Source: a virus
Lineage: Duplodnaviria; Heunggongvirae; Uroviricota; Caudoviricetes
IMG/VR virus record: IMGVR_UViG_2671180903_000016
Location: 1-21,640 of that record
Strand: one strand, 5' to 3'
Length of the DNA stretch: 21,640 nt
Of this stretch, positions 75 to 21,640 are shown piece after piece. The notes beneath the pieces were generated by a model, which saw nothing but the letters and a program-made list of their open reading frames with translations, was not told the origin of the DNA and searched no databases. The translations under genes and the position numbers were made by a program. Numbering within the stretch: position 1 is the stretch's first letter; every line of letters begins with the position of its first letter.

Positions 75-1361
75 TTACCCTGCTTTCTTATGGGGCATAC
101 ATGGGACACTTTCAGATAGTCTTTTGTTAAGGAGTTCTATCTGTTCGTGATTGTTGTCTTTCATCCATGCTCCGTAAACATTGAATACCATTTGTGCGTT
201 TGTGTGGCCCATCTGGCTTGCGATAAAACTAGGATTAGCTCCTGCGGCAAGTGACCAGCATGCATAAGTATGCCTGGATTGGTACGATTTTCTGTGTCTC
301 AGACCTGCGCGTTTTAAGATACTTGTCCATGACTCCCTGATGGAGTCAACCTTGTAGTGAGGTCCGGACAACTGCTGCTGTTTTGTTACCTGAGGACTAA
401 AAACAAAAGTGCATTTATGCACAGCAGTTCTCCCATATTCCCTCTGCTTCACCTCTACAGAATGTTGCTTTCCAAGCATGGTCATTTCCGCCTGGCTTTT
501 AAGAGCATCAATAGCTGGTTGAACCAGATGAATTGTCCTTCCGGTGCCTGCATCGGTTTTTGGTGGAGTGAATTCGCCAAGTTTTGTATAATTTCTACGG
601 ATGGTTATAGTCCTTGCTTTAAGGTCTATATCTTCCCATGCCAGCGATACCAACTCCCCGTGACGAATACCCGTGTATACAGCGAGAATCCACAGGTTTT
701 TTGTTTGTTGATGACGGCAAGCCTCAATAAAACGAATAAATTCGTCACGGGTGAGAGGATCTGGTTTTACCTTGGACTTTTTTAAGGGAGCCAGACCGTT
801 AAATGGGTTTCCTGAGGTATAACCATTATCTGTTGCAAATTGAAACATTCCAGCTATGGTTGTCATATAGTAGTTTACCGTGACCACTGAGCGCCCTTTT
901 ATGGAAGAAGTCTTTCCATTAGAAAGCTTTTGGTAACCGGTCAACAAATCTCTCCTTACGAAAAGTAAATCCTCTTTTGTTATGGATGAAACCAGTTTTT
1001 TTTCACCTAACATTGGTAACATGTTTTTAATTACTGACTGGTAACGGTTAAGTGCATTCGCACAAATCTCAATTTTCTTAAGGTCCAACCATTTTTCCGA
1101 AAGTGCCTTAACGGTTATCTCTCTTTTTCCCAGACCAAAGTGTTTCAGGTTAGGGGAATTAGGGAACTGCGCGGCGTAGTCGAAACTCCCCATTCTGATT
1201 GCAAAACAAACGGAAGTGCGAAGTTCACCAGCAATCTTCCGGTTTTTGGCTGTGTCAGGAACACCGAGGTTTTCTCTGACACGTTTGCCATTATAGTGAA
1301 ACCATATACGGAGTGATCCTCCATGGTTTTCAACGCCTGTCGGGTATGATGCGTTACTCAT
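75..1361 (-). CDS. int: Phage tyrosine integrase (428 aa)
   Basis: Full-length ORF at the prophage edge, read toward the window start; integrase-like translation; GGGAGG RBS upstream of the ATG at 1361; excisionase-like gene immediately upstream. Confidence 0.9.
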   Translation of the reverse strand: MSNASYPTGVENHGGSLRIWFHYNGKRVRENLGVPDTAKNRKIAGELRTSVCFAIRMGSFDYAAQFPNSPNLKHFGLGKREITVKALSEKWLDLKKIEICANALNRYQSVIKNMLPMLGEKKLVSSITKEDLLFVRRDLLTGYQKLSNGKTSSIKGRSVVTVNYYMTTIAGMFQFATDNGYTSGNPFNGLAPLKKSKVKPDPLTRDEFIRFIEACRHQQTKNLWILAVYTGIRHGELVSLAWEDIDLKARTITIRRNYTKLGEFTPPKTDAGTGRTIHLVQPAIDALKSQAEMTMLGKQHSVEVKQREYGRTAVHKCTFVFSPQVTKQQQLSGPHYKVDSIRESWTSILKRAGLRHRKSYQSRHTYACWSLAAGANPSFIASQMGHTNAQMVFNVYGAWMKDNNHEQIELLNKRLSESVPCMPHKKAG

Positions 1362-1394
1362 TAAACCTCCCAGACGTCCAGGAGCATTAACAGG

Positions 1395-1649
1395 TTAACC
1401 GGAACTTGCATTTTTGGCACCTGGTTGTTTCTGGTTTTCGATCCATCGCATAATTTCTTCGATGTTGTACAGGCATTCACTGTAATGCCCAGGATCACCT
1501 TCTACAGCGTAATGGCGGTATTCTTTTCCCTGCATCCATGACTTTCTTCTGGCCCGCTCGATGGTGCCGGGCTTTAGCCCTGTTGATGCAATAAGGACTC
1601 TCTCCGTACACCATTTGCTGGGGGTTATCTGATAGATGATTGTCTGCAT
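1395..1649 (-). CDS. xis: Excisionase-like protein (84 aa)
   Basis: Small basic ORF directly upstream of int on the same strand; GAGGT RBS; the call rests mainly on position and size. Confidence 0.55.
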   Translation of the reverse strand: MQTIIYQITPSKWCTERVLIASTGLKPGTIERARRKSWMQGKEYRHYAVEGDPGHYSECLYNIEEIMRWIENQKQPGAKNASSG

Positions 1650-1667
1650 GCCAACCTCATAAAACTT

Positions 1668-1802
1668 TCATCCACGGCAGTGGCACCACACGTCAAACAT
1701 TCGTTTCACAACTTCACGGCAGTAGAAGCCGTCGACATCACGGGTCAGGTCGTAGCGATTGCCGAATGTCTTGCGAACCCAGAACTCAAAAGCCGTATGC
1801 AT
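1668..1802 (-). CDS. Hypothetical small protein (44 aa, MHTAFEFWVRKTFGNRYDLTRDVDGFYCREVVKRMFDVWCHCRG)
   Basis: Not in the ORF track (under 60 aa). Hand-translated; strong RBS GGAGGTGATAC before the ATG; the start sits 3 nt after the stop of the upstream 80-aa gene. Confidence 0.35.
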   Translation of the reverse strand: MHTAFEFWVRKTFGNRYDLTRDVDGFYCREVVKRMFDVWCHCRG

Positions 1803-1805
1803 GTA

Positions 1806-2048
1806 TCACCTCCGTTGCATTGCGCGTAATTTTTTCAGGCGCATTTCCTGCTCAGTGCCCGCCAGAATTTTGCGGTACTCCTGTTGGTCAATATGTTCGA
1901 ACAGGTTGTTGAACTCACCAATGCGTACCCGTCCGGAGCGCCCGTCCATGCGTCGAAAGAACACTGAGTGCTGAGTACTGCGAGTAATCACCACAGGGTA
2001 TCCGGCTCTGTCCGTGTATATCTGACCACGTTGAATCAGAGCGAACAT
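1806..2048 (-). CDS. Hypothetical phage protein (80 aa)
   Basis: ORF in the same orientation as its neighbours in a tightly packed early-left operon; no family recognised. Confidence 0.5.
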   Translation of the reverse strand: MFALIQRGQIYTDRAGYPVVITRSTQHSVFFRRMDGRSGRVRIGEFNNLFEHIDQQEYRKILAGTEQEMRLKKLRAMQRR

Positions 2049-2052
2049 TCCT

Positions 2053-2139
2053 TTATCCCCAGCGGAAAAGCGAATACAGAATAAATGCCACCGCTATTGC
2101 AACTCCAACTGCGGTGAATGCTTCAGGCCAATTCATCAT
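2053..2139 (-). CDS. Putative small hydrophobic peptide (28 aa, MMNWPEAFTAVGVAIAVAFILYSLFRWG)
   Basis: Hand-translated; ATGA start/stop overlap with the upstream DUF551-like gene and AGGAGGTGAA RBS; one predicted TM helix. Confidence 0.3.
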   Translation of the reverse strand: MMNWPEAFTAVGVAIAVAFILYSLFRWG

Positions 2140-2726
2140 TTCACCTCCTGCGGCGGTTCTGGTAGCTGCATCCAGTGGGTTACCTCTTTGAGATACAGGT
2201 CTTCGCCATCACCGTCATCCCAAGTGGGCTTGCCATCATTAAACCAGTCGCCATATACGCCGACCTGAGTGTTGGGGATGTTTGGTGGGTAGTTGTTTTT
2301 AAAGTCAGCTGCTAACACATAGCATTGTCGCTCTCCCATTTCAGGCATTCGCTCACTACAGCTTATCCAACCATCCGGAGTTGCCGGATAGTTGCCATTC
2401 ACAAGGTCAGCTCGAACATATAGCGTGTCATCATGGTGTTGATTGTGGCTGCACCACGTTAATTCGCTTAACTCGCCATCTTCTGGCCATACTCCAGCCG
2501 TTTGCAGCCAGATATGGGCTGGCGCATCTTGGCAAGGTGTATTAACTGGCAACTTGTAAGTTTGGCTTCCAGGTTCTGCACTATCAGCCTTGCGGCGCTC
2601 CTGTAGCTCGCGCAGAGCCGCTACAACATAATGGCTATTGTGCTGGTCAGCCCACAGAATGAGCCGAATCAACGTTGCATTTGAAACGTATTCGTCTGTT
2701 AGTTTGCTATTGGTAAAAGTGGTCAT
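2136..2726 (-). CDS. DUF551-like phage protein (196 aa)
   Basis: C-terminal region (GWISCSERMPE...) resembles the DUF551 domain common in lambdoid prophages, from memory; AAGGTG RBS. Confidence 0.6.
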   Translation of the reverse strand: MTTFTNSKLTDEYVSNATLIRLILWADQHNSHYVVAALRELQERRKADSAEPGSQTYKLPVNTPCQDAPAHIWLQTAGVWPEDGELSELTWCSHNQHHDDTLYVRADLVNGNYPATPDGWISCSERMPEMGERQCYVLAADFKNNYPPNIPNTQVGVYGDWFNDGKPTWDDGDGEDLYLKEVTHWMQLPEPPQEVK

Positions 2727-2728
2727 AG

Positions 2729-2920
2729 CTATTTCACCTTAATCTCAACATTTCGCAGCTTTAGCTCTACTGGCAGGTCTGACTTTCCTGTTAATGCTAA
2801 TGCGAGATTTTCTGGAGTAATGAGAGCAGTTATTGTTTTCCCCATCGCCAGACGAATAATCATTCGTATTTCGCGATCGTCACATGCTCCTGGTCGAACA
2901 ATTGATATTTGTCCGTTCAT
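2729..2920 (-). CDS. Hypothetical phage protein (63 aa)
   Basis: ORF with AAAGGAGAG RBS, 1 nt after the stop of the upstream gene. Confidence 0.5.
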   Translation of the reverse strand: MNGQISIVRPGACDDREIRMIIRLAMGKTITALITPENLALALTGKSDLPVELKLRNVEIKVK

Positions 2921-2921
2921 C

Positions 2922-3521
2922 TCACTCTCCTTTGATGCGAATGCCAGCGACGCGTAATGCGTGTTCTAGGTCAATCAGGTAAAGCCAACTGCCATTTTCT
3001 TTAGGTATCATGACTTGTCGCTCATCTGCATTTATCGGGTGTCCATATCGAAGGTCGTAGCGAGTCGGTAATTGAACTTCCCGCGCTTCCAGTTCAGCAA
3101 TACGCTTGCACCCATCAGAGATAACTCCCTCGTAATACTCGCGCTGCTCGTTGAGTTTTGATTTTGCTGCTTCAAGCTCAACGAGCAGCTTTCCAACCGT
3201 AAGCGCAATATCCTCGTTCTCCTGGTCGCGGCGTTTGATGTATTGCTGGTTTCTTTCCTGTTCATCCAGCAGTGCCAGCACGGTAGCCGGGTTAGCCTCT
3301 GCTATGAATTCAGCGTTTGCATAAGCCTGAGCATCTGATTCAATCAGGCAGTTAACATGACATTCCGCAATCACGCCACCGGGTTCTCCTTTCCATTTTT
3401 GGCAAACAAAAACTCCTGTTAAATTGCCGTGCTGGTTAACAGATGTATGCCCTACGATGTAGCTTCCTTTAGTTGCTTTCTCTGCCTTTTCACGCAGTGC
3501 CTGATAATTAATTTCGCTCAC
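2922..3521 (-). CDS. Ead/Ea22-like protein (199 aa)
   Basis: Position and composition resemble Ea22-family early-left proteins; apparent GTG start overlapping the TraR-like stop (GTGA). Confidence 0.55.
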   Translation of the reverse strand: MSEINYQALREKAEKATKGSYIVGHTSVNQHGNLTGVFVCQKWKGEPGGVIAECHVNCLIESDAQAYANAEFIAEANPATVLALLDEQERNQQYIKRRDQENEDIALTVGKLLVELEAAKSKLNEQREYYEGVISDGCKRIAELEAREVQLPTRYDLRYGHPINADERQVMIPKENGSWLYLIDLEHALRVAGIRIKGE

Positions 3522-3739
3522 TTCGAACCTCTCTGTTTACTGATAAGCTCCAGATCCTCCTGGCAACTTGCACAAGTCCGACAACCCTGAACGGCCAGGC
3601 GTCTTCGTTCATCTATCGGATCGCCACACTCACAACAATGAGTGGCAGATATAGCCTGGTGGTTCAGGCGGCGCATTTTTATTGCTGTGTTGCGCTGTAA
3701 TTCTTCAATTTCTGATGCTGAATCAATGATGTCTGCCAT
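3518..3739 (-). CDS. TraR/DksA-family C4 zinc-finger protein (73 aa)
   Basis: Four-Cys motif CxxC...17 residues...CxxC (CCECG ... CRTCASC) in a 73-aa protein, typical of phage TraR-like proteins. Confidence 0.7.
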   Translation of the reverse strand: MADIIDSASEIEELQRNTAIKMRRLNHQAISATHCCECGDPIDERRRLAVQGCRTCASCQEDLELISKQRGSK

Positions 3740-7180: not shown

Positions 7181-7651
7181 CTAATAAAATACCCAATTTT
7201 CTGTTTCTTGGTTGTGTCCAAAGTTATATTCAATATCTGGTGTTGATGTATCAATATTCTTCATACCATCAACAAGAGTTGATACAACAGCCAAATCTTG
7301 TTTGATTCTCATTAAATGGTATTTCTTCCGGCGCAATAAACTTTCAATGGCAAGTTTCTTCGTTGGGAATGCAAAAGATCTTTCTGCATTTTTTGCTACT
7401 TTCTTAATTGCATATCTATTTCTCCTTTGTTTCCATTCCTGTAACCACTGATTTGGTGCTGGTTTAAAATTAACAATCCAATGCGCAGGAACCAACCATG
7501 CATAATGCTCTGTCTGATGAAAAGCTATATATTGAAGTGCGAATATTTTTATCCCATCTTCTTCAACTGTCGCCTGGAATCTCCAGAAAACAGGCATTCC
7601 ATCATGTTCAGTTTCTGATTCAGGAAAAGGTACGCTCCATGATTTTGTCAT
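7181..7651 (-). CDS. Hypothetical protein (156 aa) in the ral/sieB slot
   Basis: ORF with GAGGTGAG RBS, downstream of N on the pL transcript; surrounding DNA looks AT-rich by eye; no family recognised. Confidence 0.6.
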   Translation of the reverse strand: MTKSWSVPFPESETEHDGMPVFWRFQATVEEDGIKIFALQYIAFHQTEHYAWLVPAHWIVNFKPAPNQWLQEWKQRRNRYAIKKVAKNAERSFAFPTKKLAIESLLRRKKYHLMRIKQDLAVVSTLVDGMKNIDTSTPDIEYNFGHNQETENWVFY

Positions 7652-7709
7652 ATCTCACCTCAAATAAGTGGTTTGCTGCCTAATTTCATTTTCTGGCGAC
7701 CAACACAAG

Positions 7710-8093
7710 TCACCTCGCCGTCAGTTGTTTTGATTTCCGGTAGCCTGCCGCGTAAATGGCTACGTTTGGAAGACATACACCAGTTTCTGGTTGCTTATGT
7801 CCAAACTCATTCGCGTACACAATGGCCGCTCGCTCCAGATTGCGTCTGTATTCTTTCTGTTGCCAGATCACGTCCTGTGCCATGAACTTAATTGGCTTAG
7901 CGTCTTCTATGCGCTCAGGCGTTTCGTGAGTACCTTTAGCCTGAATCTGCGCTCTGCTTAGAGTAGGGCGGTGTAATACTTCTGAACTTATTGCTTCTTC
8001 GCGGGCCAGTACGCCGTTAGCTAATGCCTTTGCCTTTAAACGCTCACGACGACGAGAACGTGAATTGCCTTTGAACTGAGTTCTGCGTGTCAT
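7710..8093 (-). CDS. N: Antitermination protein N (H-19B/933W type), 127 aa
   Basis: Arginine-rich N-terminal motif (RRTQFKGNSRSRRRERLKAK); first gene downstream of the nutL-like hairpin; strong CAGGAGG RBS; resembles Stx-phage N as recalled. Confidence 0.75.
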   Translation of the reverse strand: MTRRTQFKGNSRSRRRERLKAKALANGVLAREEAISSEVLHRPTLSRAQIQAKGTHETPERIEDAKPIKFMAQDVIWQQKEYRRNLERAAIVYANEFGHKQPETGVCLPNVAIYAAGYRKSKQLTAR

Positions 8094-8258
8094 ATAGACC
8101 TCCTGATGAACTTTGGTGGTGTGGTAGGTGGGAGACCCATTTCGACCTGTTTCGGCCTACTTCAATTCGGCAATAGTCCCGCAGGCCTCGCCGCTTTACG
8201 TGCGACATATTCCCGTCCATGAACCCTTCACCACACCCCAAAGTTCACTTTGGTTATT

Positions 8259-8273
8259 GCGCTTTGTCAGCGC
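8259..8273 (-). promoter_or_regulatory. nutL boxB-like hairpin (GCGCU-GACAA-AGCGC on the leftward transcript)
   Basis: 5-bp stem with 5-nt GACAA loop about 170 nt upstream of the N start; same loop as the hairpin downstream of cro. Confidence 0.5.
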
Positions 8274-8339
8274 CGTAGATTCATATTCGAATCGTTGTAT
8301 ATTTACCGCCCTGGTGAGTAATGCGTCCTGCTGATGGGT

Positions 8340-8400
8340 GAGCTTTATCGGAATGATAAATTAATGGCAATAGCAAAATGATAAATTCTCTTGGTTTTCA
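8340..8400 (-). promoter_or_regulatory. Putative oL/pL region with two direct AATGATAAATT repeats
   Basis: AATGATAAATT at 8352-8362 and 8377-8387; the same TGATAAAT motif recurs in the cI-cro intergenic region. Confidence 0.45.
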
Positions 8401-8559
8401 AATATCGTATTGATTCTTATGGTGTTTTATTTTGTTGTAGGAATTCGACAGGATAAATAAAGAGATTTGAGGGAGATCTGGATTGCGTTGTTTAGCAAGT
8501 TGTATCTATTTATTTTTCAACAAATACAATTGGTTATGTGTTTTTAGGTGTGGGATCGT

Positions 8560-8592
8560 GAGGCAAAGAAAACCCGGCGCTGAGGCCGGGTT
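8560..8592 (-). terminator. Rho-independent terminator ending the cI-cassette operon
   Basis: Minus strand: AACCCGGC-ctcagc-GCCGGGTT followed by TTCTTTG, directly after the stop of the 206-aa gene. Confidence 0.6.
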
Positions 8593-8598
8593 AATGCG

Positions 8599-9219
8599 TT
8601 AATGCTGGGGAGTGATTTTTTTGTTGTCTGTTGGCTGGGTATTTTGTGGCGGCGCTTGCAAAGTGGAAGGCTGTTGCAAAGGTGCGTGGTCTGACTTTAA
8701 AGCTGATACCAGCCCGGGAATCGCAACTATTACAGCGATAATGACACTAAAAATGGCTAATCGTATAGAAATACCCGACTGAACACCACTAATTGCGGTA
8801 TTAACCCCTGTTATTTGTCCTTGAATTCCTTCGAATCTCCCATTAATTGCTTTTATATCGCCAGCAGCGCTATCCATCTTTCCATCGATCTTGGACGATA
8901 GAGAGCTTATGGCTGCATTAAGTGATGCAAATTGGACATTAACGCTTTCACGAGATAGAGCCATGTCAGCCCTAATGGAAGAAGCAATAGACTCCATCTC
9001 TGCTTTATTAGCAGCTAAGCGAGCATCAAGTTCCTCTCTGCTGATCGTTCCCACTTCTTCCTCCGTTTGTGGCGGTTTTATGTAATTATTTTGCACCTTG
9101 GTGGGAGAATTATCAAATTCAGCCTCAAAATCGGAACCGCCAACAACCTTCAACCTCCGGCTTTCAGATATGTTGGTGTCTTGCTTTCCATGATTATTTA
9201 AATTACTGTCGTCACTCAT
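8599..9219 (-). CDS. Hypothetical membrane-anchored protein (206 aa); cassette gene C
   Basis: ATGA overlap with the upstream gene; N-terminal polar region, central helical region with heptad-like spacing, one hydrophobic segment (IRLAIFSVIIAVIVAIPGLVSAL) and a Pro/Gln-rich tail. Confidence 0.7.
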   Translation of the reverse strand: MSDDSNLNNHGKQDTNISESRRLKVVGGSDFEAEFDNSPTKVQNNYIKPPQTEEEVGTISREELDARLAANKAEMESIASSIRADMALSRESVNVQFASLNAAISSLSSKIDGKMDSAAGDIKAINGRFEGIQGQITGVNTAISGVQSGISIRLAIFSVIIAVIVAIPGLVSALKSDHAPLQQPSTLQAPPQNTQPTDNKKITPQH

Positions 9220-9650
9220 AATAGCTCTACGGTGAAAAATGATTCATTTTTATGAAGTTCATTTTTAGGGTCTTCATTATCTTGCAATATCCCTATAACA
9301 CTATACAGCCCTTTAGCTGGGACCCTAATTTCTTTCAATGTTACTATTACCTGTCCGCCAACCCCTGTTTCAAAATGGCTATCTTTCGTATCGATGAAAA
9401 GTGAAACTGATTCCGAAGAGCCGTCAGGGAATTGAATTTCCTCACCTTTTTTTATAATTAGGTGCGCGGGGATTACCATAATACCCAAATTATATCTTGA
9501 ATTTGGTTTCAACCCGATCATACCAACCCTGAAATCAATTGATAGCCGCGCAGGAAATTCATTGCATGTAAAATTAAGCGTCGGTTGGTTGGGTTCTTCG
9601 CTGCTATCAAATGGGGTTATAAAAGATATTCTTTCTAAATTAAGTGCCAT
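9216..9650 (-). CDS. Hypothetical protein (144 aa from the ATG at 9650; track ORF extends to 9704); cassette gene B
   Basis: Strong RBS GCAGGAGAATTT before the ATG at 9650; the stop overlaps the gene C start; no recognisable motif. Confidence 0.65.
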   Translation of the reverse strand: MALNLERISFITPFDSSEEPNQPTLNFTCNEFPARLSIDFRVGMIGLKPNSRYNLGIMVIPAHLIIKKGEEIQFPDGSSESVSLFIDTKDSHFETGVGGQVIVTLKEIRVPAKGLYSVIGILQDNEDPKNELHKNESFFTVELL

Positions 9651-9720
9651 AAATTCTCCTGCATCGCTGTATGCTCTACGAGCATCTCTGCGATCATCCA
9701 TCATCCAAACGTCTCTTCAC

Positions 9721-10062
9721 TCATCCGAAGAAGCAGCAATCCGGGTCAGCACGCACAAGCTCAAGCGCATCAGTCAGCGAAAGTTCAGTACTGTACTGAT
9801 GCCATTTCATATCCTTCCGCATCCAATAGATTTTCCATCTATCCAGAGAACGTATGTACTTGATTCTTGCTGATGGCAGGATGTTTGTTTCACCTGGGTT
9901 GCCCTGCCACACGGGGCGCTGTTCGCCGATATCTATCGTTTGGTCATTGATGCTATAAACAATATCCAGTTCATTGCGGATATGTTCAGGCGGCCTTATG
10001 CTTTCAATGAATTGGTGAACTTCTTTTTTGACCGCTTGATATTCAAGGTCAGTGAACGCCAT
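9721..10062 (-). CDS. Hypothetical protein (113 aa); cassette gene A, immediately downstream of cI
   Basis: Strong RBS GAGGAGG 5 nt before the ATG; same strand as cI, 60 nt after its stop; family not confidently recognised. Confidence 0.7.
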   Translation of the reverse strand: MAFTDLEYQAVKKEVHQFIESIRPPEHIRNELDIVYSINDQTIDIGEQRPVWQGNPGETNILPSARIKYIRSLDRWKIYWMRKDMKWHQYSTELSLTDALELVRADPDCCFFG

Positions 10063-10122
10063 CTATCCTCCTCACCCAAACGTTTCTTCTGGCCACTGGT
10101 TACCAGCTATGTGACGATGAAG

Positions 10123-10827
10123 TCACGAACTTTTCAGCCACTCCCTTGCCTCGATGTCATCCAGATGGCGAGATTGCTTCAGAATACCAGCTACATACTC
10201 CACCTTTGCTACTTGATGATAAGGCAACGTTATAGGCCTGTGATCCTGGTTAATGCTTGTAAATTGGTATTCTCCATCTCTGTCATAGCCAAGAACCTTA
10301 ATCATGTTGTGTCCTTCAACGGTTCTGACAAACACCTCGTCACCCGGGAATACTTTGGTGTTAGGCTCAATGAGTACATATTCTCCTGATTTTATTCTGG
10401 GCCACATGCTGTCTCCTTTCACACGAAGACCAAAGGCATCTGGATCATCGCTATAAATTTTGAGCCACCCATCGCGCTCTTCGGTCATCTCGATGGCACC
10501 ATCAACACCAAGAATTGCCTCACCAACCACGCGCACTAACCCTTTTCTTACCTGACCGACAAAAGTTAAAGAATCTGAGCATGATGCAATTGGTGTTACA
10601 TCATGTACCAAATCAAGCCACCCATTAGGTAACCCAAGCGCGGCTTCAAATTTTCTTGCTAGTTTATCCCCTATGTTTCGAGTGCTTTTTTCACCGGAGA
10701 CTTGCGTGAGTTGAGAAGGGCTAACCCCAAGCTTATCGGCAAAGCTTGCATTAGTGTTACCCGCGATTTTTTTATGCTCATCTAGCAAAAACGCCAGATT
10801 CGATTTGCGAATATCTTTGTTTTCCAT
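10123..10827 (-). CDS. cI: CI-type prophage repressor (HTH N-terminus, LexA/S24-like C-terminus), 234 aa
   Basis: N-terminal HTH region and a C-terminal GDSMWP motif with a downstream Lys, typical of autocleaving S24 repressors; divergent from the cro-like gene across an operator-rich gap. Confidence 0.85.
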   Translation of the reverse strand: MENKDIRKSNLAFLLDEHKKIAGNTNASFADKLGVSPSQLTQVSGEKSTRNIGDKLARKFEAALGLPNGWLDLVHDVTPIASCSDSLTFVGQVRKGLVRVVGEAILGVDGAIEMTEERDGWLKIYSDDPDAFGLRVKGDSMWPRIKSGEYVLIEPNTKVFPGDEVFVRTVEGHNMIKVLGYDRDGEYQFTSINQDHRPITLPYHQVAKVEYVAGILKQSRHLDDIEAREWLKSS

Positions 10828-10940
10828 CTCACAATTTTCCCTCTATTTAGCAAATGGATAAATACGCAATATGATAAATTTACATTGCGGATGATTTATC
10901 AAAATGGTAAAGTTGTTCTGTGTGATAAACGGAGGCACTA
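10828..10940. promoter_or_regulatory. oR/pRM/pR divergent control region
   Basis: 113-bp gap between divergent cI and cro with repeated TGATAAAT-like half-sites (10853-10863, 10871-10880, inverted at 10894-10901, 10921-10930). Confidence 0.6.
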
Positions 10941-11174
10941 ATGAGTAATGAACTACTACGCTGGCGAAAAGAGGCTTCTAGTGAGGAATGGAAGCGACTC
11001 GCCGCATTAGCGAAAACTTCAGTTGGCTATCTTGACCAGATTGCATATGGATTTCGAAGAGCTTCCCCTGATAAAGCGAATGCAATCGAAGAAGCTACTC
11101 GTAATTTCACGGGTTATAAACCTGTGAAAAAGGAAAACCTAGTGTTCGTATCGCGTAGAGCATCGGCTGCATAA
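10941..11174 (+). CDS. cro: Cro-like HTH regulator (77 aa)
   Basis: First rightward gene divergent from cI; GGAGG RBS; small protein with a likely HTH. Confidence 0.7.
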   Translation: MSNELLRWRKEASSEEWKRLAALAKTSVGYLDQIAYGFRRASPDKANAIEEATRNFTGYKPVKKENLVFVSRRASAA

Positions 11175-11181
11175 GTAACAC

Positions 11182-11227
11182 CGCTCTTTTCACAATGGAC
11201 ATTCGTCCTACGTCGCTGACAAAGCGA
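11182..11227 (+). promoter_or_regulatory. nutR-like site: boxA (CGCTCTTTTCACA) plus boxB hairpin (TCGCT-GACAA-AGCGA)
   Basis: boxA-like CGCTCTT motif 8 nt after the cro stop, then a 5-bp stem/5-nt loop hairpin at 11213-11227. Confidence 0.55.
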
Positions 11228-11312
11228 GTCCCAATATATCTGACCAACTAAGGCCATATGCGTTTCCACGCATACCTTTCAACTAGCTATTCACTATTGG
11301 AAATCTTAAGAA

Positions 11313-11609
11313 ATGGAACAAACAAGTTACAGCAAACTATCACAGCGAGAAATTGATCGCGCTGAAACTGATTTACTCATCAACCTGTCAACGCTTACCC
11401 AGCGCGGTCTGGCAAAGATGATTGGCTGTCATGAATCGAAGATAAGCAGAACGGACTGGAGATTTATTGCTTCGGTCTTGTGTGCTTTCGGAATGGCATC
11501 AGACATCAGTCCGATTAGCAGGGCTTTTAAGTATGCGCTTGATGAAATCACAAAGAAAAAATCCCCGGTGGCCGCCGGGGACTCTAAGCAAATTGATATG
11601 CAATTCTGA
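11313..11609 (+). CDS. cII: CII-like transcriptional activator (98 aa)
   Basis: Position after cro/nutR; the C-terminus (KKKSPVAAGDSKQIDMQF) parallels the lambda CII C-terminus as recalled. Confidence 0.8.
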   Translation: MEQTSYSKLSQREIDRAETDLLINLSTLTQRGLAKMIGCHESKISRTDWRFIASVLCAFGMASDISPISRAFKYALDEITKKKSPVAAGDSKQIDMQF

Positions 11610-15875: not shown

Positions 15876-16598
15876 ATGTACGGAGTTATCGTTATGGCCA
15901 CTCAGATTTCTGTCGAAACTCTTTCCCCAATTACACACAACCAAATTCCCGTTATCACTACCGAGTTACTGGCACAGCTTTACTGTACCGAGATCAACAA
16001 CATCAAAGTAAATTACACCCGTAATTCCGAGCGTTTTGTTGAGGGTAAACACTTTTTCAAGGTTGTTGGTGATGAGTTGAAAATTTTGCGGGTTACTTTA
16101 AGTAACTCACAAAATTTGCAACCATCTTTAAGAGGGTTACAAATTTCCCCGAAAGCCCGCTCCCTCATCCTCTGGACAGAACGCGGAGCAGCCCGTCACG
16201 CCAAAATGCTCGAAACCGATCAGGCGTGGGAAGTGTTCGAAAAACTGGAAGACTGCTATTTCAGCCAGTGCGAGAAAAATACTGGCAAACAAGAGAAGAA
16301 GCTCAACGGGCTTTCCGCAAAAGAAACAGACAGCCTTGTATGGCTGTGGGATTATGCTAACCGCTCACAGGCATTATTCCGCGAATTGTATCCAGCGCTA
16401 AAGCAAATTCAATCGAACTATTCCGGCAGATGTTACGACTACGGTCATGAGTTCTCGTATGTTATTGGAATGGCGAGAGACGTTTTAATCAATCACACAC
16501 GAGATGTTGATATTAATGAGCCAGACGGACCAACGAATCTTTCCGCATGGGTAAGGCTTAAGAACAAAGAATTACCTCCTTCACTACATCGCTACTGA
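15876..16598 (+). CDS. ORF6N/KilA-N-type domain protein (antirepressor-like), 240 aa (alternative start at 15894)
   Basis: N-terminal segment ([40 protein letters not shown]) fits the ORF6N-domain pattern as recalled; followed by a strong terminator. Confidence 0.6.
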
Positions 16599-16666: not shown

Positions 16667-17395
16667 ATGACAATGAACGAGCTGATAAATAGCAACGTCA
16701 TCAAAATTACCAGCATTGAAATCTCTGAGCTTACAGGTAAGCGTCATGACAATGTGAAACGTACTATCGAAATGCTGGCTAAAAATGGTGTTATCCGACA
16801 TCCTCAAATTGAGGATTGTGGAAGAATCAATGGGTTAGGCTTAAATCAAAGTTTTCGTGTGTATGTATTCGAAGGCGAACAAGGTAAGCGAGACAGCATT
16901 ATTGTCGTTGCCCAGTTGTCGCCGGAATTCACCGCTCGTCTTGTTGACCGTTGGCGAGAGCTTGAAGACGCTGCGGTTAATATCCCCAAAACTCTACCAG
17001 AAGCGTTGCGCCTTGCTGCTGATCTTGCTGAGCAGAAAATGCAACTGGAAAACCAGCTCGCAATTGCCGCACCTAAAGTTGAGTTTGCCGATCGCGTTGG
17101 CGAGGCCAGCGGAATTTTGATTGGAAACTATGCAAAGGTTGTTGGTATTGGTCCAAACAAACTGTTTGCGTGGATGCGCGAACACAAAATCCTTATTGCT
17201 TCAGGTTCCCGGCGCAATGTGCCAATGCAGGAATATATGGATCGCGGCTATTTCACAGTGAAAGAAACAGCGGTCAATACAAATCACGGAATACAGATAT
17301 CGTTCACCACAAAAATCACCGGGCGTGGTCAACAGTGGCTGACCAGAAAGCTGCTAGATAACGGAATGCTTAAAGTAACAGGGGAGGCTGCTTAA
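16667..17395 (+). CDS. Rha-family regulatory protein with C-terminal KilAC/antirepressor domain (242 aa)
   Basis: N-terminal Rha-like region ([24 protein letters not shown]) and C-terminal Ant-like region as recalled; GAGAGGA RBS. Confidence 0.75.
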
Positions 17396-18000: not shown

Positions 18001-18191
18001 CGTTCACCGTAAAAACCATTCCTGACATGCTCCTTGAGGCATATGGAAATCAGACCGAGGTAGCCCGAATACTGAACTGCAATCGTGCCACAGTCAGAAA
18101 ATACATTGGCGATAAAGAAGGGAAAAAGCACGCCGTCGTCAATGGCGTCCTTATGGTTCATCGCGGATGGGGTAAAGATACTGATGCGTGA
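17997..18191 (+). CDS. ninH: NinH (64 aa)
   Basis: [58 protein letters not shown] matches lambda NinH as recalled. Confidence 0.85.
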
Positions 18192-18618
18192 TATCCGGCA
18201 GGTTCTTGAGCGCTGGGGTGCATGGGCGGCAAATAACCATGAGGATGTTACATGGTCGCCCATTGCTGCCGGATTTAAGGGACTGATCCCCGAAAAAGTA
18301 AAATCACGTCCACAGTGTTGTGACGATGACGCGATGATTATATGCGGGTGTATGGCTCGCCTTAACAGGAACAACAGCGATCTGCATGACTTGCTGGTTG
18401 ATTATTACGTGTTGGGGGAGACGTTCATGGCGCTGGCACGGAAACATGGGTGCTCTGACACCTGTATAGGTAAACGCCTTCACAAAGCGGAGGGGATTGT
18501 TGAAGGCATGCTGATGATGCTGGGAGTGAGGCTTGAGATGGATCGGTATGTTGAGCGTGAATTGCCGGGAGGGAGAACCTCTGTATTTTATCAGCGAAAA
18601 AATAGTTTACGATCGTAA
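18184..18618 (+). CDS. Q: Late antiterminator Q, 933W type (144 aa)
   Basis: [25 protein letters not shown]...[17 protein letters not shown] matches the Stx-phage Q as recalled; ATG overlaps the ninH stop. Confidence 0.8.
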
Positions 18619-18868
18619 AAATCTGCATATCATGATAAGAGTGGTTACATTGCCACGCTGCTTAACCCGCTGATGCGCGGGTTTTTTTGTACCCAGAATC
18701 CTGTGAGCTATACGGAAAGTACACAGAAAGGAAGGTGCGACCACAATTAATAACAAAATCTTAAAAATTGCACATGGCACTATTAGTTTTCTAAATATTG
18801 TGTATTTTTTGTATTGCAGGATGACCCTGTAACGAAGTTTGCGTAACAGCATTTTGCTCTACGAGTTT

Positions 18869-18897
18869 GCCAGCCTCCCCCAGTGGCTGGCTTTTTT
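18869..18897 (+). terminator. Rho-independent terminator (candidate tR') downstream of Q
   Basis: GCCAGCC-tcccccagt-GGCTGGC followed by TTTTTT. Confidence 0.6.
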
Positions 18898-18899
18898 AT

Positions 18900-19019
18900 G
18901 TCCGTAGCGTCAAAGCAGCAATGTCGCTGGGGCGTCGTGCAATTGGCGTTGAGCTGGAGACTGAACGTTTTGAGCAGACGGTCAGGGAAGTTCAGGATTT
19001 AGTCAGTCAGAACGGATGA
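18900..19019 (+). pseudogene. 3'-terminal remnant of a DNA methyltransferase gene
   Basis: The in-frame translation SVKAAMSLGRRAIGVELETERFEQTVREVQDLVSQNG resembles the conserved C-terminal motif of N6/N4 methyltransferases; no upstream catalytic region is present. Confidence 0.4.
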
Positions 19020-19059
19020 TATTGCAGGATTAGTTACGTACCGTTATTATCCTGCGCCC

Positions 19060-19135
19060 GGCCCTTTAGCTCAGTGGTGAGAGCGAGCGACTCATAATCG
19101 CCAGGTCGCTGGTTCAAATCCAGCAAGGGCCACCA
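19060..19135 (+). tRNA. ileZ: tRNA-Ile2-like (anticodon CAU)
   Basis: Hand-folded cloverleaf: acceptor GGCCCTT/AAGGGCC, anticodon loop CTCATAA, T-loop TTCAAAT, 3' CCA; close to E. coli tRNA-Ile2 as recalled. Confidence 0.85.
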
Positions 19136-19144
19136 TATCACATA

Positions 19145-19221
19145 CCGCCATTAGCTCATCAGGACAGAGCGCCAGCCTTCGAAGCTGGTTGCGCGGGGTT
19201 CGGGTCCCCGGTGGCGGTCCA
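19145..19221 (+). tRNA. tRNA-Arg-like (anticodon UCG by hand fold), atypical
   Basis: Cloverleaf with perfect anticodon stem CCAGC/GCTGG and loop CTTCGAA; unusual C1-G72 pair and T-loop TTCGGGT. Confidence 0.55.
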
Positions 19222-19234
19222 TTATCGGTATTCT

Positions 19235-19311
19235 GCGTTGTTAGCTCAGCCGGACAGAGCAATTGCCTTCTAAGCAATCGGTCACTGGTTCGAATCCAGT
19301 ACAACGCGCCA
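19235..19311 (+). tRNA. tRNA-Arg (anticodon UCU)
   Basis: Acceptor GCGTTGT/ACAACGC, anticodon stem ATTGC/GCAAT, loop CTTCTAA, T-loop TTCGAAT, 3' CCA. Confidence 0.85.
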
Positions 19312-19550
19312 CACTTATTTTCCCTGGCTCGCTTTTGCGGGCCTTTTTTTTAAATGTCTCACAATTCAGGCGGTTGACTGTTGTCTGGTTTGCGGGGAGT
19401 TTGTTAAAAGAAACTGGCATGGTGAATCCCCCTGTGCGGAGGGGCAATCAGCAACCAGGTATATGTGATAATCGCGGATTCAGGTGCTGATACTGAATTC
19501 ACCGGGAGGCACCCGGCACCATGCAAGAAAAAGAATGTGCATGCAAACAT

Positions 19551-19574
19551 GCCCCTCTCCGGAGGGGCTTTTTT
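19551..19574 (+). terminator. Rho-independent terminator between the tRNA cluster and the esterase gene
   Basis: GCCCCTC-tccg-GAGGGGC followed by TTTTTT. Confidence 0.7.
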
Positions 19575-19701
19575 ATGGGTAAAAAATGCCCGAATGGGTT
19601 CGGGCAATAGCATGAGATACTGATATTGTTGTGTTGTTATCGTGTGGATTTTAACCAGGGTTTATCAGGCTGCGCAACTGCGTGGCCTTTTTTCATTTCT
19701 T

Positions 19702-19746
19702 GGGCTGTAGTCCCCGTGTGTCATTCAGGCTTCCGGACTACAGCCC
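19702..19746. repeat. Perfect 12-bp inverted repeat (GGGCTGTAGTCC ... GGACTACAGCCC) with 21-nt spacer
   Basis: Read directly; sits about 45 nt upstream of the esterase start codon. Confidence 0.7.
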
Positions 19747-19789
19747 ACTCCATATCTGATTTAATACACTATCCCGGCCGGGAGGAATA

Positions 19790-21640
19790 ATGACATTTAA
19801 ACATTATGATGTTGTCAGGGCGGCGTCGCCGTCAGACCTTGCGGAAAAGCTGACACACAAACTGAAAGAGGGCTGGCAGCCGTTTGGTAGTCCGGTGGCC
19901 ATAACCCCTTATACCCTGATGCAGGCGATTACAGCAGAAGGTGATGTGGTGGTCAGTGGTGCAACTGAGCCGGATTGGTACTACGTCATCGTACTGGCCG
20001 GGCAGTCCAATGCCATGGCTTACGGTGAAGGGCTTCCGCTGCCGGATTCATACGATGCTCCGGATCCGCGCATTAAACAGCTGGCGCGCCGCAGTACAGT
20101 GACGCCGGGTGGGGCTGCCTGCAGATATAACGATATTATTCCGGCCGACCACTGCCTGCATGATGTGCAGGATATGAGTACGCTGAATCATCCGAAGGCA
20201 GACCTGAGCAAAGGGCAGTACGGCTGTGTCGGCCAGGGTTTACATATTGCCAAAAAACTGCTCCCGTATATCCCGAATAACGCGGGGATCCTGCTGGTAC
20301 CATGCTGTCGTGGTGGTTCGGCATTCACCCAGGGCGCGGAGGGGACATTCAGTGCGGACACGGGGGCCAGCCAGGATTCGGCACGCTGGGGTGTGGGTAA
20401 ACCGTTATATCAGGACCTGATTGCGCGCACTAAAGCTGCATTACAGAAGAACCCGAAAAATGTGTTGCTGGCGGTGTGCTGGATGCAGGGAGAGTTTGAC
20501 ATGAGCGCCGCCACCCACGCACAGCAACCTGCGCTGTTTACAGCCATGCTGACACAGTTTCGTGCTGACCTCTCCGTGTTTAACGCGCAGTGCCATGGTG
20601 GCAGTGCTGCAGATGTGCCGTGGATTTGTGGTGACACGACGTATTACTGGAAAAATACATACGCTACCCAGTACGACACCGTGTACGGCGGGTATAAAAA
20701 CAGGGAGAGTGAGGGCGTTTATTTTGTGCCCTTCATGACAGACGGTAACGGCGTCAATACCGCCACTAACGCGCCGGCAGAAGATCCGGATATTCCGGCA
20801 TCAGGATATTACGGTGCGGCATCGAGAACGAATGGAAACCAGGTATCATCAAACCGCCCGACACATTTCAGTTCATGGGCGCGCAGGAGCATTATTCCGG
20901 ATCGTCTGGCAACCGCTATTCTGAACGCAGCCGGGCGCACCTCAGCCTTCATCAGTGGTAAGGCACCGGAAATTAAACCCTCGCCCGGCGGCAACACGCC
21001 ATCGGGTCCGTCTGCAGATACGTCCGTTCGCACAATCTCCCTGCTGCCGGCAGCCGGAGAGGCTGCTGCGCAGGGCTGGAGCATTAAGGATGGCGGAATT
21101 CAGTTGTCAGATGGTGTATTTAAGATCACCAAGCAGAGCAATAAAACCTGGTCCCTGACGCATCCGGTGGATGACGCAATTACCCTGCTGACACAGGGCG
21201 GCAGACTGACCTGTAAGTTCCGCCTGTCAGGCGCACTGACCAACAATCAGTTCGGGCTGGGGATTTATCTGTATACGGATGCTCCCGTTCCTGATGGTGT
21301 GGCGATGACGGGTACCGGTAATCCGTTCCTGATGTCGTACTTCACTCAGACCACTGACGGCAGAGTGAATCTGATGCATCACAGGAAAGCCGGAAACACG
21401 AAGCTGGGGGAGTTCGGCGATTACGGTAACGACTGGCAGACGCTGGAGCTGGTGTTCACCGCCGGCAGTGCCACGGTTACTCCGAAACTGAATGGAGTGG
21501 CTGGCCCGGCATTCCAGGTTATAAAAGACAGTCTGACACTGGGACTGAATGCGCTGACGCTGACGGATGTTACAAAAAATGCAGCGTATGGCGTTGAGAT
21601 AGAAAGTCTGATGCTGGAGATAAATGCACCGGCAGCATAA
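19790..21640 (+). CDS. NanS-p-like 9-O-acetyl sialate esterase (N-terminal DUF1737-like, SASA/SGNH esterase core), 616 aa
   Basis: GGGAGG RBS; GQSN motif (VLAGQSNAMAYGEG) and overall architecture match the large esterase ORF found downstream of stx in Stx phages, as recalled; stop at the window end. Confidence 0.75.
   Translation: MTFKHYDVVRAASPSDLAEKLTHKLKEGWQPFGSPVAITPYTLMQAITAEGDVVVSGATEPDWYYVIVLAGQSNAMAYGEGLPLPDSYDAPDPRIKQLARRSTVTPGGAACRYNDIIPADHCLHDVQDMSTLNHPKADLSKGQYGCVGQGLHIAKKLLPYIPNNAGILLVPCCRGGSAFTQGAEGTFSADTGASQDSARWGVGKPLYQDLIARTKAALQKNPKNVLLAVCWMQGEFDMSAATHAQQPALFTAMLTQFRADLSVFNAQCHGGSAADVPWICGDTTYYWKNTYATQYDTVYGGYKNRESEGVYFVPFMTDGNGVNTATNAPAEDPDIPASGYYGAASRTNGNQVSSNRPTHFSSWARRSIIPDRLATAILNAAGRTSAFISGKAPEIKPSPGGNTPSGPSADTSVRTISLLPAAGEAAAQGWSIKDGGIQLSDGVFKITKQSNKTWSLTHPVDDAITLLTQGGRLTCKFRLSGALTNNQFGLGIYLYTDAPVPDGVAMTGTGNPFLMSYFTQTTDGRVNLMHHRKAGNTKLGEFGDYGNDWQTLELVFTAGSATVTPKLNGVAGPAFQVIKDSLTLGLNALTLTDVTKNAAYGVEIESLMLEINAPAA

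Follow-up and report, generated by a model that had tools for sequence, protein, structure and literature searches.

The interval between the repressor gene cI and the antiterminator gene N is a mosaic hotspot of accessory genes expressed in lysogens, rexAB and bstA being examples (PMC7067206; PMC8585504). In the RexA/RexB pair of phage lambda, RexB has been described as an ion channel activated by RexA (PMC8585504). Experiments have validated PD-lambda-2, a three-gene, toxin-antitoxin-like system, as a means of abortive infection (Vassallo et al., bioRxiv 10.1101/2022.05.12.491691). In this study, we analysed a window of 21,640 nucleotides from a Caudoviricetes virus (positions 1 to 21,640 of IMG/VR record IMGVR_UViG_2671180903_000016), which is a lambdoid prophage, and found that its cI-N interval contains three genes, here called A, B and C. 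Gene C (8599-9219, minus strand) is a genuine conserved gene with a tail-anchored coiled-coil product of 206 aa, predicted to reside in the inner membrane. The reading that we favour, with a probability of roughly 0.5, is that B and C form a modular phage-exclusion module expressed in lysogens, where C is the constant membrane subunit and its partner gives specificity.

In the initial annotation of gene C the product was likened to lysis or abortive-infection effectors. Membership of a triggered abortive-infection or exclusion system, the broader form of this idea, is supported indirectly and fairly strongly by the position of the gene, while the argument from protein layout and the assignment to an XhlA or holin family, both made in the same annotation, did not hold up. 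A-B-C occupies the position of rexA-rexB in phage lambda, downstream of cI and upstream of a Timm-like terminator and PL. B-C and the terminator are 98% identical in nucleotide sequence to a segment of phages HK542 and HK244, which have lambda immunity and carry the pair downstream of a lambda-type cI and upstream of Timm and PL; the homology to HK542 spans 8473-9719 of the window and ends at 9719. Phages with the cI allele of this window (H-19B, BP-4795, ST2-8624 and many Shiga toxin (Stx) phages) are 96-99% identical to it on both flanks and carry a different three-gene cargo between 8591 and 10072, the BP-4795 homology resuming at 8591. The recombination boundaries of the cargo are the shared terminator and the 3' end of cI, and it is in this same interval that PD-lambda-2-like genes lie in the phages with this cI allele. 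The replacing cargo (2302-3643 of the collected locus L003; ORF20-22 of BP-4795) encodes a HigB-like toxin, a helix-turn-helix (HTH) protein and a PD-T4-9_C-like component, with PADLOC matches to PD-Lambda-2_A (HigB-like, E = 2.5e-42), PD-Lambda-2_B (E = 3.8e-50, N-terminal part only) and PD-T4-9_C (E = 3e-11). Different cargo thus lies between identical breakpoints in phages with the same cI, which makes A-B-C an allelic replacement of defence-type cargo. The relationship is not one of homology, as the PD-lambda-2 proteins (HigB-like toxin, HTH-peptidase and chaperone-like component) are unrelated to those of A-B-C and include no membrane component. A-B-C thus adds a cargo type to the repressor-N slot that is used by RexAB, BstA and PD-lambda-2-like systems.

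The cassette is also linked to repressors outside this prophage. B-C was found in 51 of 5426 complete E. coli genomes, always as a single chromosomal copy annotated as hypothetical, where it follows at least three cI alleles. Furthermore, we gathered 13 contexts of C homologues, distant members included, from Cedecea, Enterobacter, Leclercia, Salmonella, Yersinia (two), Pectobacterium, Xenorhabdus and five metagenomic contigs. These were obtained by exact-protein look-ups, and a scan of genome contigs with the family alignment gave one confirmed locus, that of Xenorhabdus. A small gene lies directly upstream of the C homologue in all 13; in the 12 contexts where the junction was measured, the two genes overlap by as much as 20 nt or stand at most 20 nt apart. 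Nine of the 13 have a repressor upstream of the partner (contigs L010, L023 and L025 are too short to show it), and the kinds of repressor include S24 CI, short CI_repr/HTH proteins and YdaS/YdaT-type switches. The cassette is spread across Enterobacterales, and its presence in the cultured phages HK542 and HK244 makes it directly testable.

The partners, in contrast to C, are of at least four unrelated types. E. coli B and the Cedecea partner, and probably those of Salmonella and Xenorhabdus, are of the beta-sandwich type; the partners in E. cloacae and one metagenomic contig are Cys4 zinc-ribbon-like; a third type comprises proteins of 92-101 aa in two subgroups; and there is one further type. 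No member of any type has a Pfam or PADLOC match. The N-termini of C proteins are significantly similar only within a partner type (E = 8e-4 between E. coli and Cedecea, E = 2e-5 between metagenomic contig L025 and Pectobacterium), which modestly suggests that the variable N-terminus of about 58 residues docks the cognate partner and that B would bind C. A constant membrane subunit combined with at least four unrelated partners suggests a modular design, with one anchor or effector and swappable specificity subunits, and such a design, if true, would bear more generally on the ways in which prophages diversify exclusion.

Gene C is read from an ATG at 9219 to a stop codon at 8599-8601, as a minus-strand open reading frame (ORF) of 206 aa. 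The coordinates in the initial annotation were correct, and both peptides quoted there occur verbatim in the minus-strand translation; a plus-strand reading of 8599-9219 was rejected, as that frame has stops throughout. We regard the gene as real because its product matches the PHROG family phrog_5820 (E = 1e-76), which has no assigned function, and because a word-index search found 28 homologous clusters and a profile search 300 representatives.

The product is built of five parts, all read on the minus strand. Residues 1-58 (9046-9219) are polar, poorly conserved and predicted to be disordered, with a predicted local distance difference test (pLDDT) score of 44-53. Residues 59-92 (8944-9045; ISREELDARLAANKAEMESIASSIRADMALSRES) are the conserved helix that defines the family (pLDDT 86-90), and residues 93-151 (8767-8943) are a coiled-coil stalk recognised by heptad periodicity and by indels of 0 or +7 residues. 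A single transmembrane (TM) helix, delimited by Kyte-Doolittle hydrophobicity and column frequencies, follows at residues 152-174 (8698-8766; IRLAIFSVIIAVIVAIPGLVSAL), and residues 175-206 (8602-8697) are a Pro/Gln-rich tail, which family statistics on topology predict to be periplasmic. An AlphaFold2 model of the monomer, made from a 22-sequence alignment, has helices at 61-140 and 149-174 with a short break between them, whereas residues 1-60 and 175-206 are unstructured; its overall pLDDT is 57.7, rising to 77-90 for residues 61-110. Thus the polar N-terminal stretch of about 60 residues, the one hydrophobic segment and the Pro/Gln-rich tail that had been described for C were all borne out. 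The hydrophobic segment is the sole stretch above 1.6 on the Kyte-Doolittle scale, the best 19-residue windows reaching 2.71 at residues 154-174, and the tail holds 6 Pro and 6 Gln in 32 residues.

The spacing of the helical region had been described as heptad-like, and this is strictly true of its membrane-proximal half only. Residues 108-151 show a hydrophobic periodicity of 3.5 residues with z = 3.6, a value reached by 2 of 5000 shuffles, whereas residues 59-107 alone show no significant heptad periodicity (z = -0.9) and the whole stretch of 59-151 gives z = 1.6. In residues 59-107 the hydrophobic positions show 4-4 register shifts. The heptads IDGKMDS, AAGDIKA, INGRFEG, IQGQITG, VNTAISG and VQSGISI continue into the TM helix. 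In addition, the differences in stalk length among 22 homologues are each exactly 0 or +7 residues, which is strong independent evidence for a coiled-coil constraint in C.

At the start of the helix, a near-invariant L-x-x-N-K-A-E motif (residues 68-75, window 8995-9018) would place an Asn on a core heptad position throughout the family. Polar layers with Asn at position d, and motifs of the IENKAD type, are known from trimeric coiled coils, and the motif of C recalls both. This core Asn and the presence of trimeric viral coiled coils among weak Protein Data Bank (PDB) matches are the only pointers to the oligomeric state, and they suggest a trimer. The TM helix has a conserved ladder of small residues (G/S158, A/T162, A166 and G/S169, by column frequencies), and the tail has a family motif, P-I-I-I-Q-V-P, which is degenerate in the E. 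coli protein (PSTLQAP).

The C family is large. In the word-index search all of the organism-named clusters were from Enterobacterales, and the 300 representatives of the exhaustive profile search were obtained at E <= 1e-3, 102 of them at E <= 1e-10. A single hydrophobic segment is present in 120 of the 121 representatives of 140-300 aa; its median position is 152, with a median of 35 residues after it (10 or fewer in 16 proteins). Lys and Arg are richer on the N-terminal side of the segment than on the other (1.78 against 1.12), and just 4 of the 121 have any N-terminal hydrophobic stretch. The position of the segment, the Lys/Arg bias and the rarity of N-terminal hydrophobic stretches fit a tail-anchored protein of the inner membrane, in which the N-terminus would be cytoplasmic and the C-terminus outside. 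The family is most conserved where the helix begins (REELdAkLaaNKAEVeaIASsMR.EMAeWRE), the N-K-A-E residues being 90-100% conserved (102/154 representatives). In the close family the N-terminus has a mean column conservation of 0.29, compared with 0.73 in the motif, 0.78 in the stalk, 0.74 in the TM helix and 0.46 in the tail.

A chimeric relative, P0088, is 70% identical to the Cedecea protein P0015 (L008, 6001-6612) over the first 115 residues and near-identical to it over the first 60 or so. Past residue ~115 the alignment ends, and P0088 continues with a different, DUF1640-like stalk and another type of TM helix. This pair demonstrates domain shuffling within the family, such that the stalk/TM module is exchangeable, and the family contains no fewer than three types of TM helix. 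Both this exchangeability and the variability of the partners agree with a role of C as an anchor or scaffold at least as well as with membrane damage.

The nearest sequence relatives of C are tail-anchored coiled coils of the CCDC90-like/DUF1640 family (PF07798; MCUR1, CCDC90B and prokaryotic members), which likewise have a coiled-coil stalk ending in a C-terminal TM anchor. Among 52 extended-family members, 17 match PF07798 at E < 1e-3 (best 2.1e-12), with matches that reach the C-terminal end of the profile, and among ten distant relatives scanned singly the best score is 30.2 bits, with a gathering threshold of 33.5. C itself gives 12.6 bits (E = 0.12) against the cut-off of 33.5 bits, and it differs in its stalk of IDGxxxx heptads, its TM type and its Pro/Gln tail. 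The kinship would inform the structure of C and not its function, bacterial DUF1640 proteins having no assigned function. The layout of C, which had been taken as typical of membrane-perturbing proteins, is thus not diagnostic of them. C would also give a first functional handle on bacterial tail-anchored coiled coils of the DUF1640 type.

Other searches gave little for either protein. C has no above-threshold match in Pfam, NCBIfam or PADLOC, and its sub-threshold matches are coiled-coil noise (Baculo_PEP_C, Rota_VP6, SlaB and LmuB). A Pfam scan at E <= 1 returned eight weak coiled-coil families, XhlA (PF10779) not among them, and when the 52 extended-family members were compared with Pfam, XhlA was absent from the best 25 of 29 families. 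In PADLOC-DB v2, C matches only LmuB (E = 0.016) and B has no match; the extended C family gives scattered coiled-coil hits only (LmuB, LeoA, JetC and ZorA). PDB searches with the single sequence and with the profile reached E = 0.012 at best, with trimeric viral coiled coils, apolipoproteins and SmhB among the matches. A Foldseek search of the PDB with the C model found no match, though a low-confidence model consisting of one long helix is little informative in such a search. Our literature searches found no paper treating DUF3024 (the domain of gene A) or the RefSeq accessions or PHROG identifiers of B and C, and nothing relevant on tail-anchored coiled-coil proteins in prophage superinfection exclusion. 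Both proteins have been in the databases, with no assigned function, since the sequencing of HK244 and HK542 (records EF120457 and EF120458).

Among the described systems closest to B-C is RexA/RexB, with which it shares the slot (downstream of cI and ending at Timm, a place documented as rich in prophage exclusion systems), presumably the expression mode, and the format of two genes for one cytoplasmic and one membrane protein. RexB is a polytopic membrane protein, whereas C has a single C-terminal TM helix and a long coiled coil; B, a small beta-sandwich, is not RexA-like. Neither B nor C has a Pfam, PHROG-annotated or PADLOC match to RexA or RexB, and there is no fold relationship. Therefore, while the logic of B-C resembles that of known cI-linked exclusion systems, the pair is unrelated to all of them in sequence and architecture.

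In the mechanism that we propose, the module would consist of two genes, one for a small cytoplasmic partner and one for a tail-anchored coiled coil, cotranscribed with cI in lysogens. C would sit in the inner membrane with its disordered N-terminal ~58 residues docking the partner, which in this prophage is the beta-sandwich protein B. Oligomers, probably trimers, would form through the REELDAxLxxNKAE helix and the heptad stalk, and the TM helix with the short Pro/Gln tail would hold the assembly in the membrane. The partner would supply specificity, the C assembly would act at the membrane, and other phages would be excluded. Exclusion is the most likely function of B-C.

Several points weigh against this. 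B and C have no experimental or homology tie to any known defence protein, the PADLOC search with B being blank. The hotspot position is only suggestive, as such slots hold non-defence accessory genes too. The co-variation of N-terminus and partner comprises two significant pairs only, and the confidence of the C monomer model is low. Lastly, one of the Yersinia cassettes (L004, 5016-6970) has no adjoining repressor; it lies beside dinI, where a prophage with baseplate genes of the Mu/P2 type ends, which shows that a second accessory-gene slot is also open to the cassette.

A different account of the same pair is that C is a triggered, membrane-permeabilising effector, in a Rex-like scheme of abortive infection where B senses infection and C, oligomerising via its coiled coil and TM helix, depolarises the membrane. 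The combination of a cytoplasmic and a membrane protein in the rexAB slot has the logic that this account expects. The TM helix is conserved like the stalk (0.74), its small-residue ladder is typical of tightly packed TM oligomers, and a conserved PIIIQVP motif, predicted to be periplasmic, follows; together these exceed the conservation needed by a passive anchor. However, the helix is devoid of charged residues and has almost no polar ones that could line a pore, and a stalk/TM module that has been interchangeable in evolution (P0088 vs P0015; at least three TM types) also counts against such an effector. C is disrupted with B intact in 4 of the 51 cassette-bearing E. coli genomes, which is compatible with a costly gene but is equally explained by gene decay in cryptic prophages. 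In a weak local similarity of 58 residues (113-170), the last stalk heptads and the TM helix resemble the hydrophobic head with which tripartite alpha-pore-forming toxins insert into membranes (SmhB and AhlB, PDB profile E = 0.013 and 0.71; MakE, NCBIfam E = 0.006). Those toxins are secreted, soluble helical bundles of ~360 aa; the matches (E = 0.013-0.7 in the PDB searches) are compositionally biased and far below threshold, MakE scoring 15.7 bits against a cut-off of 360, and homology of C to SmhB, AhlB or MakE is unsupported. Taken together, we consider a permeabilising effector possible but rather unlikely. A more far-reaching form of the idea is that repressor operons contain a widespread class of prophage defence, so far unrecognised, whose conserved membrane effector is the C family. 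Interchangeable sensors (beta-sandwich, zinc-ribbon-like or small alpha/beta) would sit on the variable N-terminus of a trimeric tail-anchored coiled coil, and a phage cue would lead to a rearrangement of the coiled coil that breaches or blocks the inner membrane. Such a plug-and-play pairing of sensor and effector would act on the membrane by a new mechanism, and we consider it quite improbable.

B-C might also have no part in defence and instead form a lysogeny module acting on the host or on the prophage switch, perhaps through membrane tethering or sequestering of a factor, with effects on induction, envelope physiology or stress tolerance. Analogues would be the influence of RexA/RexB on the lambda switch, the two having been reported to aid the lysogenic-to-lytic transition, and accessory genes such as bor and lom. 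Linkage to many repressor types across genera could reflect a role in the switch, and the DUF1640/CCDC90-like relatives are without a known defence role. On the other hand, the highly variable partner and N-terminus resemble arms-race diversification and not housekeeping regulation, and the switch does not need the cassette, since close phage relatives lack it or carry a defence system instead. We regard such a module as unlikely, and if it were nonetheless the case, the strict repressor linkage would point to a new element of lysogeny control. Far less credible is a role of C in lysis (as an XhlA-like accessory, holin or spanin-like protein) or as a coiled-coil component of the virion or tail fibre. 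A coiled coil with one TM helix would suit such a protein, and XhlA, the haemolysin-like lysis accessory of PBSX, shares the gross layout of an N-terminal coiled coil and a C-terminal TM helix. In favour of a virion part, the PDB sequence search gave weak matches, one of them a short tail fibre (E = 0.45) and another the P22 tail needle gp26 (E = 0.93). But XhlA has ~90 aa and C is more than twice as long, no XhlA, holin or spanin family of Pfam matches at E <= 1, and the tail-fibre and tail-needle matches are non-significant coiled-coil noise. Moreover, C lies outside the lysis cassette and is placed for expression in lysogens, in the immunity operon between cI and PL/N; some 9 kb separate it from Q and the late region, which are on the opposite arm, and a repressor is found upstream in nine of the ten contexts with a visible upstream gene. 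Position and lack of homology effectively exclude the lysis-accessory and virion readings, and with them the XhlA-like or holin-accessory role that had been suggested for C. The statement that C is neither a repressor nor a recombination protein was upheld, and C is clearly no virion component either. A phage-exclusion module with a constant C and a variable partner remains the reading that we prefer.

The immunity operon that contains B-C has the order cI, A, B, C and a terminator, followed by OL/PL and N, with C as the last gene of the minus-strand block. The genes cI, A, B and C are on the same strand with short or overlapping junctions. The first gene, cI (10123-10827, minus strand), encodes a repressor of 234 aa with an HTH and an S24 peptidase domain (Pfam Peptidase_S24, E = 3.8e-16; phrog_4, transcriptional repressor); it is of the H-19B/BP-4795 immunity type, and the cI region is 98.8% identical in nucleotides to that of BP-4795. 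Gene A (9721-10062, minus strand; 113 aa) encodes a DUF3024 protein (Pfam E = 2.4e-31) that matches PDC-S43 of PADLOC (E = 7.2e-42), a candidate single-gene defence system. It is a separate mosaic insert of ~9720-10071, found in some E. coli prophages and absent from others including HK542. Gene B (9216-9650, minus strand) encodes the partner of C, a protein of 144 aa predicted to be cytoplasmic and all-beta (Ig-like sandwich), and its stop overlaps the start of C by 4 nt (ATGA). The mechanical ORF of B extends to 9704 and would give 162 aa, and RefSeq annotates 162 or 144 aa depending on the genome. Because an AGGAGA Shine-Dalgarno sequence, the start of the PHROG profile and the HK542 annotation all agree with a start at Met19, the 162-aa form, with its extra 9651-9704, is probably an over-extension.

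Downstream of C, a terminator scan found an intrinsic terminator (8571-8592, minus strand) 7 nt past the C stop, with an 8-bp stem of which 6 pairs are GC and a T tract. It is the counterpart of lambda Timm, which is annotated at the same place in HK542, and it forms the left breakpoint of the cargo cassette. A putative OL/PL region at about 8340-8430, limits that are approximate, contains repeated TTATCAT-containing operator-like sequences and lies between N and the immunity operon; the homologous record of ST2-8624 has annotated OL1-3. The antiterminator N (7710-8093, minus strand; Pfam N_peptide E = 2.1e-15; phrog_271) is the first early-left gene. B-C is probably transcribed from PRM in lysogens. 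A promoter scan gave four promoter-like sites against 6.1 expected by chance, and hence no evidence for an internal pLit-like promoter, and an Rfam scan of 7600-11400 found no RNA family.

Natural alleles of C in E. coli differ in which parts they retain. In two strains IS1 is inserted after about codon 121, which removes the TM helix, and in two strains, 90-3040 among them, an in-frame deletion of residues 11-112 leaves the last heptads, the TM helix and the tail. Another allele has a 6-aa LQQPST slip in the tail, with B intact. The loci of these natural alleles are 2515-2898 of L027, 3001-3315 of L013 and 3001-3603 of L011.

The remainder of the window has a lambdoid arrangement. The left arm, on the minus strand, contains an integrase gene (75-1361), exo/bet-type recombination genes, a DUF2528 gene and N, and the right arm, on the plus strand, contains cro (10941-11174), cII, O, P, NinG, Q, three tRNA genes and a gene for a NanS-p-like esterase. 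Between N and the DUF2528 gene lies an uncharacterised early-left gene, a 156-aa ORF (7181-7651, minus strand) that lacks Pfam domains and matches phrog_1636 (E = 2.7e-112), a family with no assigned function. Two adjacent plus-strand genes of the nin region, upstream of NinG, are antirepressor-like, one with ORF6N and P22_AR_C domains (15876-16598) and one with Rha and ANT/KilAC domains (16667-17395). The late region (18085-21640) has the architecture of Stx phages, with Q, tRNA genes for Met, Arg and Arg (19060-19311) and, from 19790, the NanS-p-like esterase with DUF1737 and SASA domains; since just ~480 bp lie between the tRNA genes and the esterase gene, no stx genes are present.

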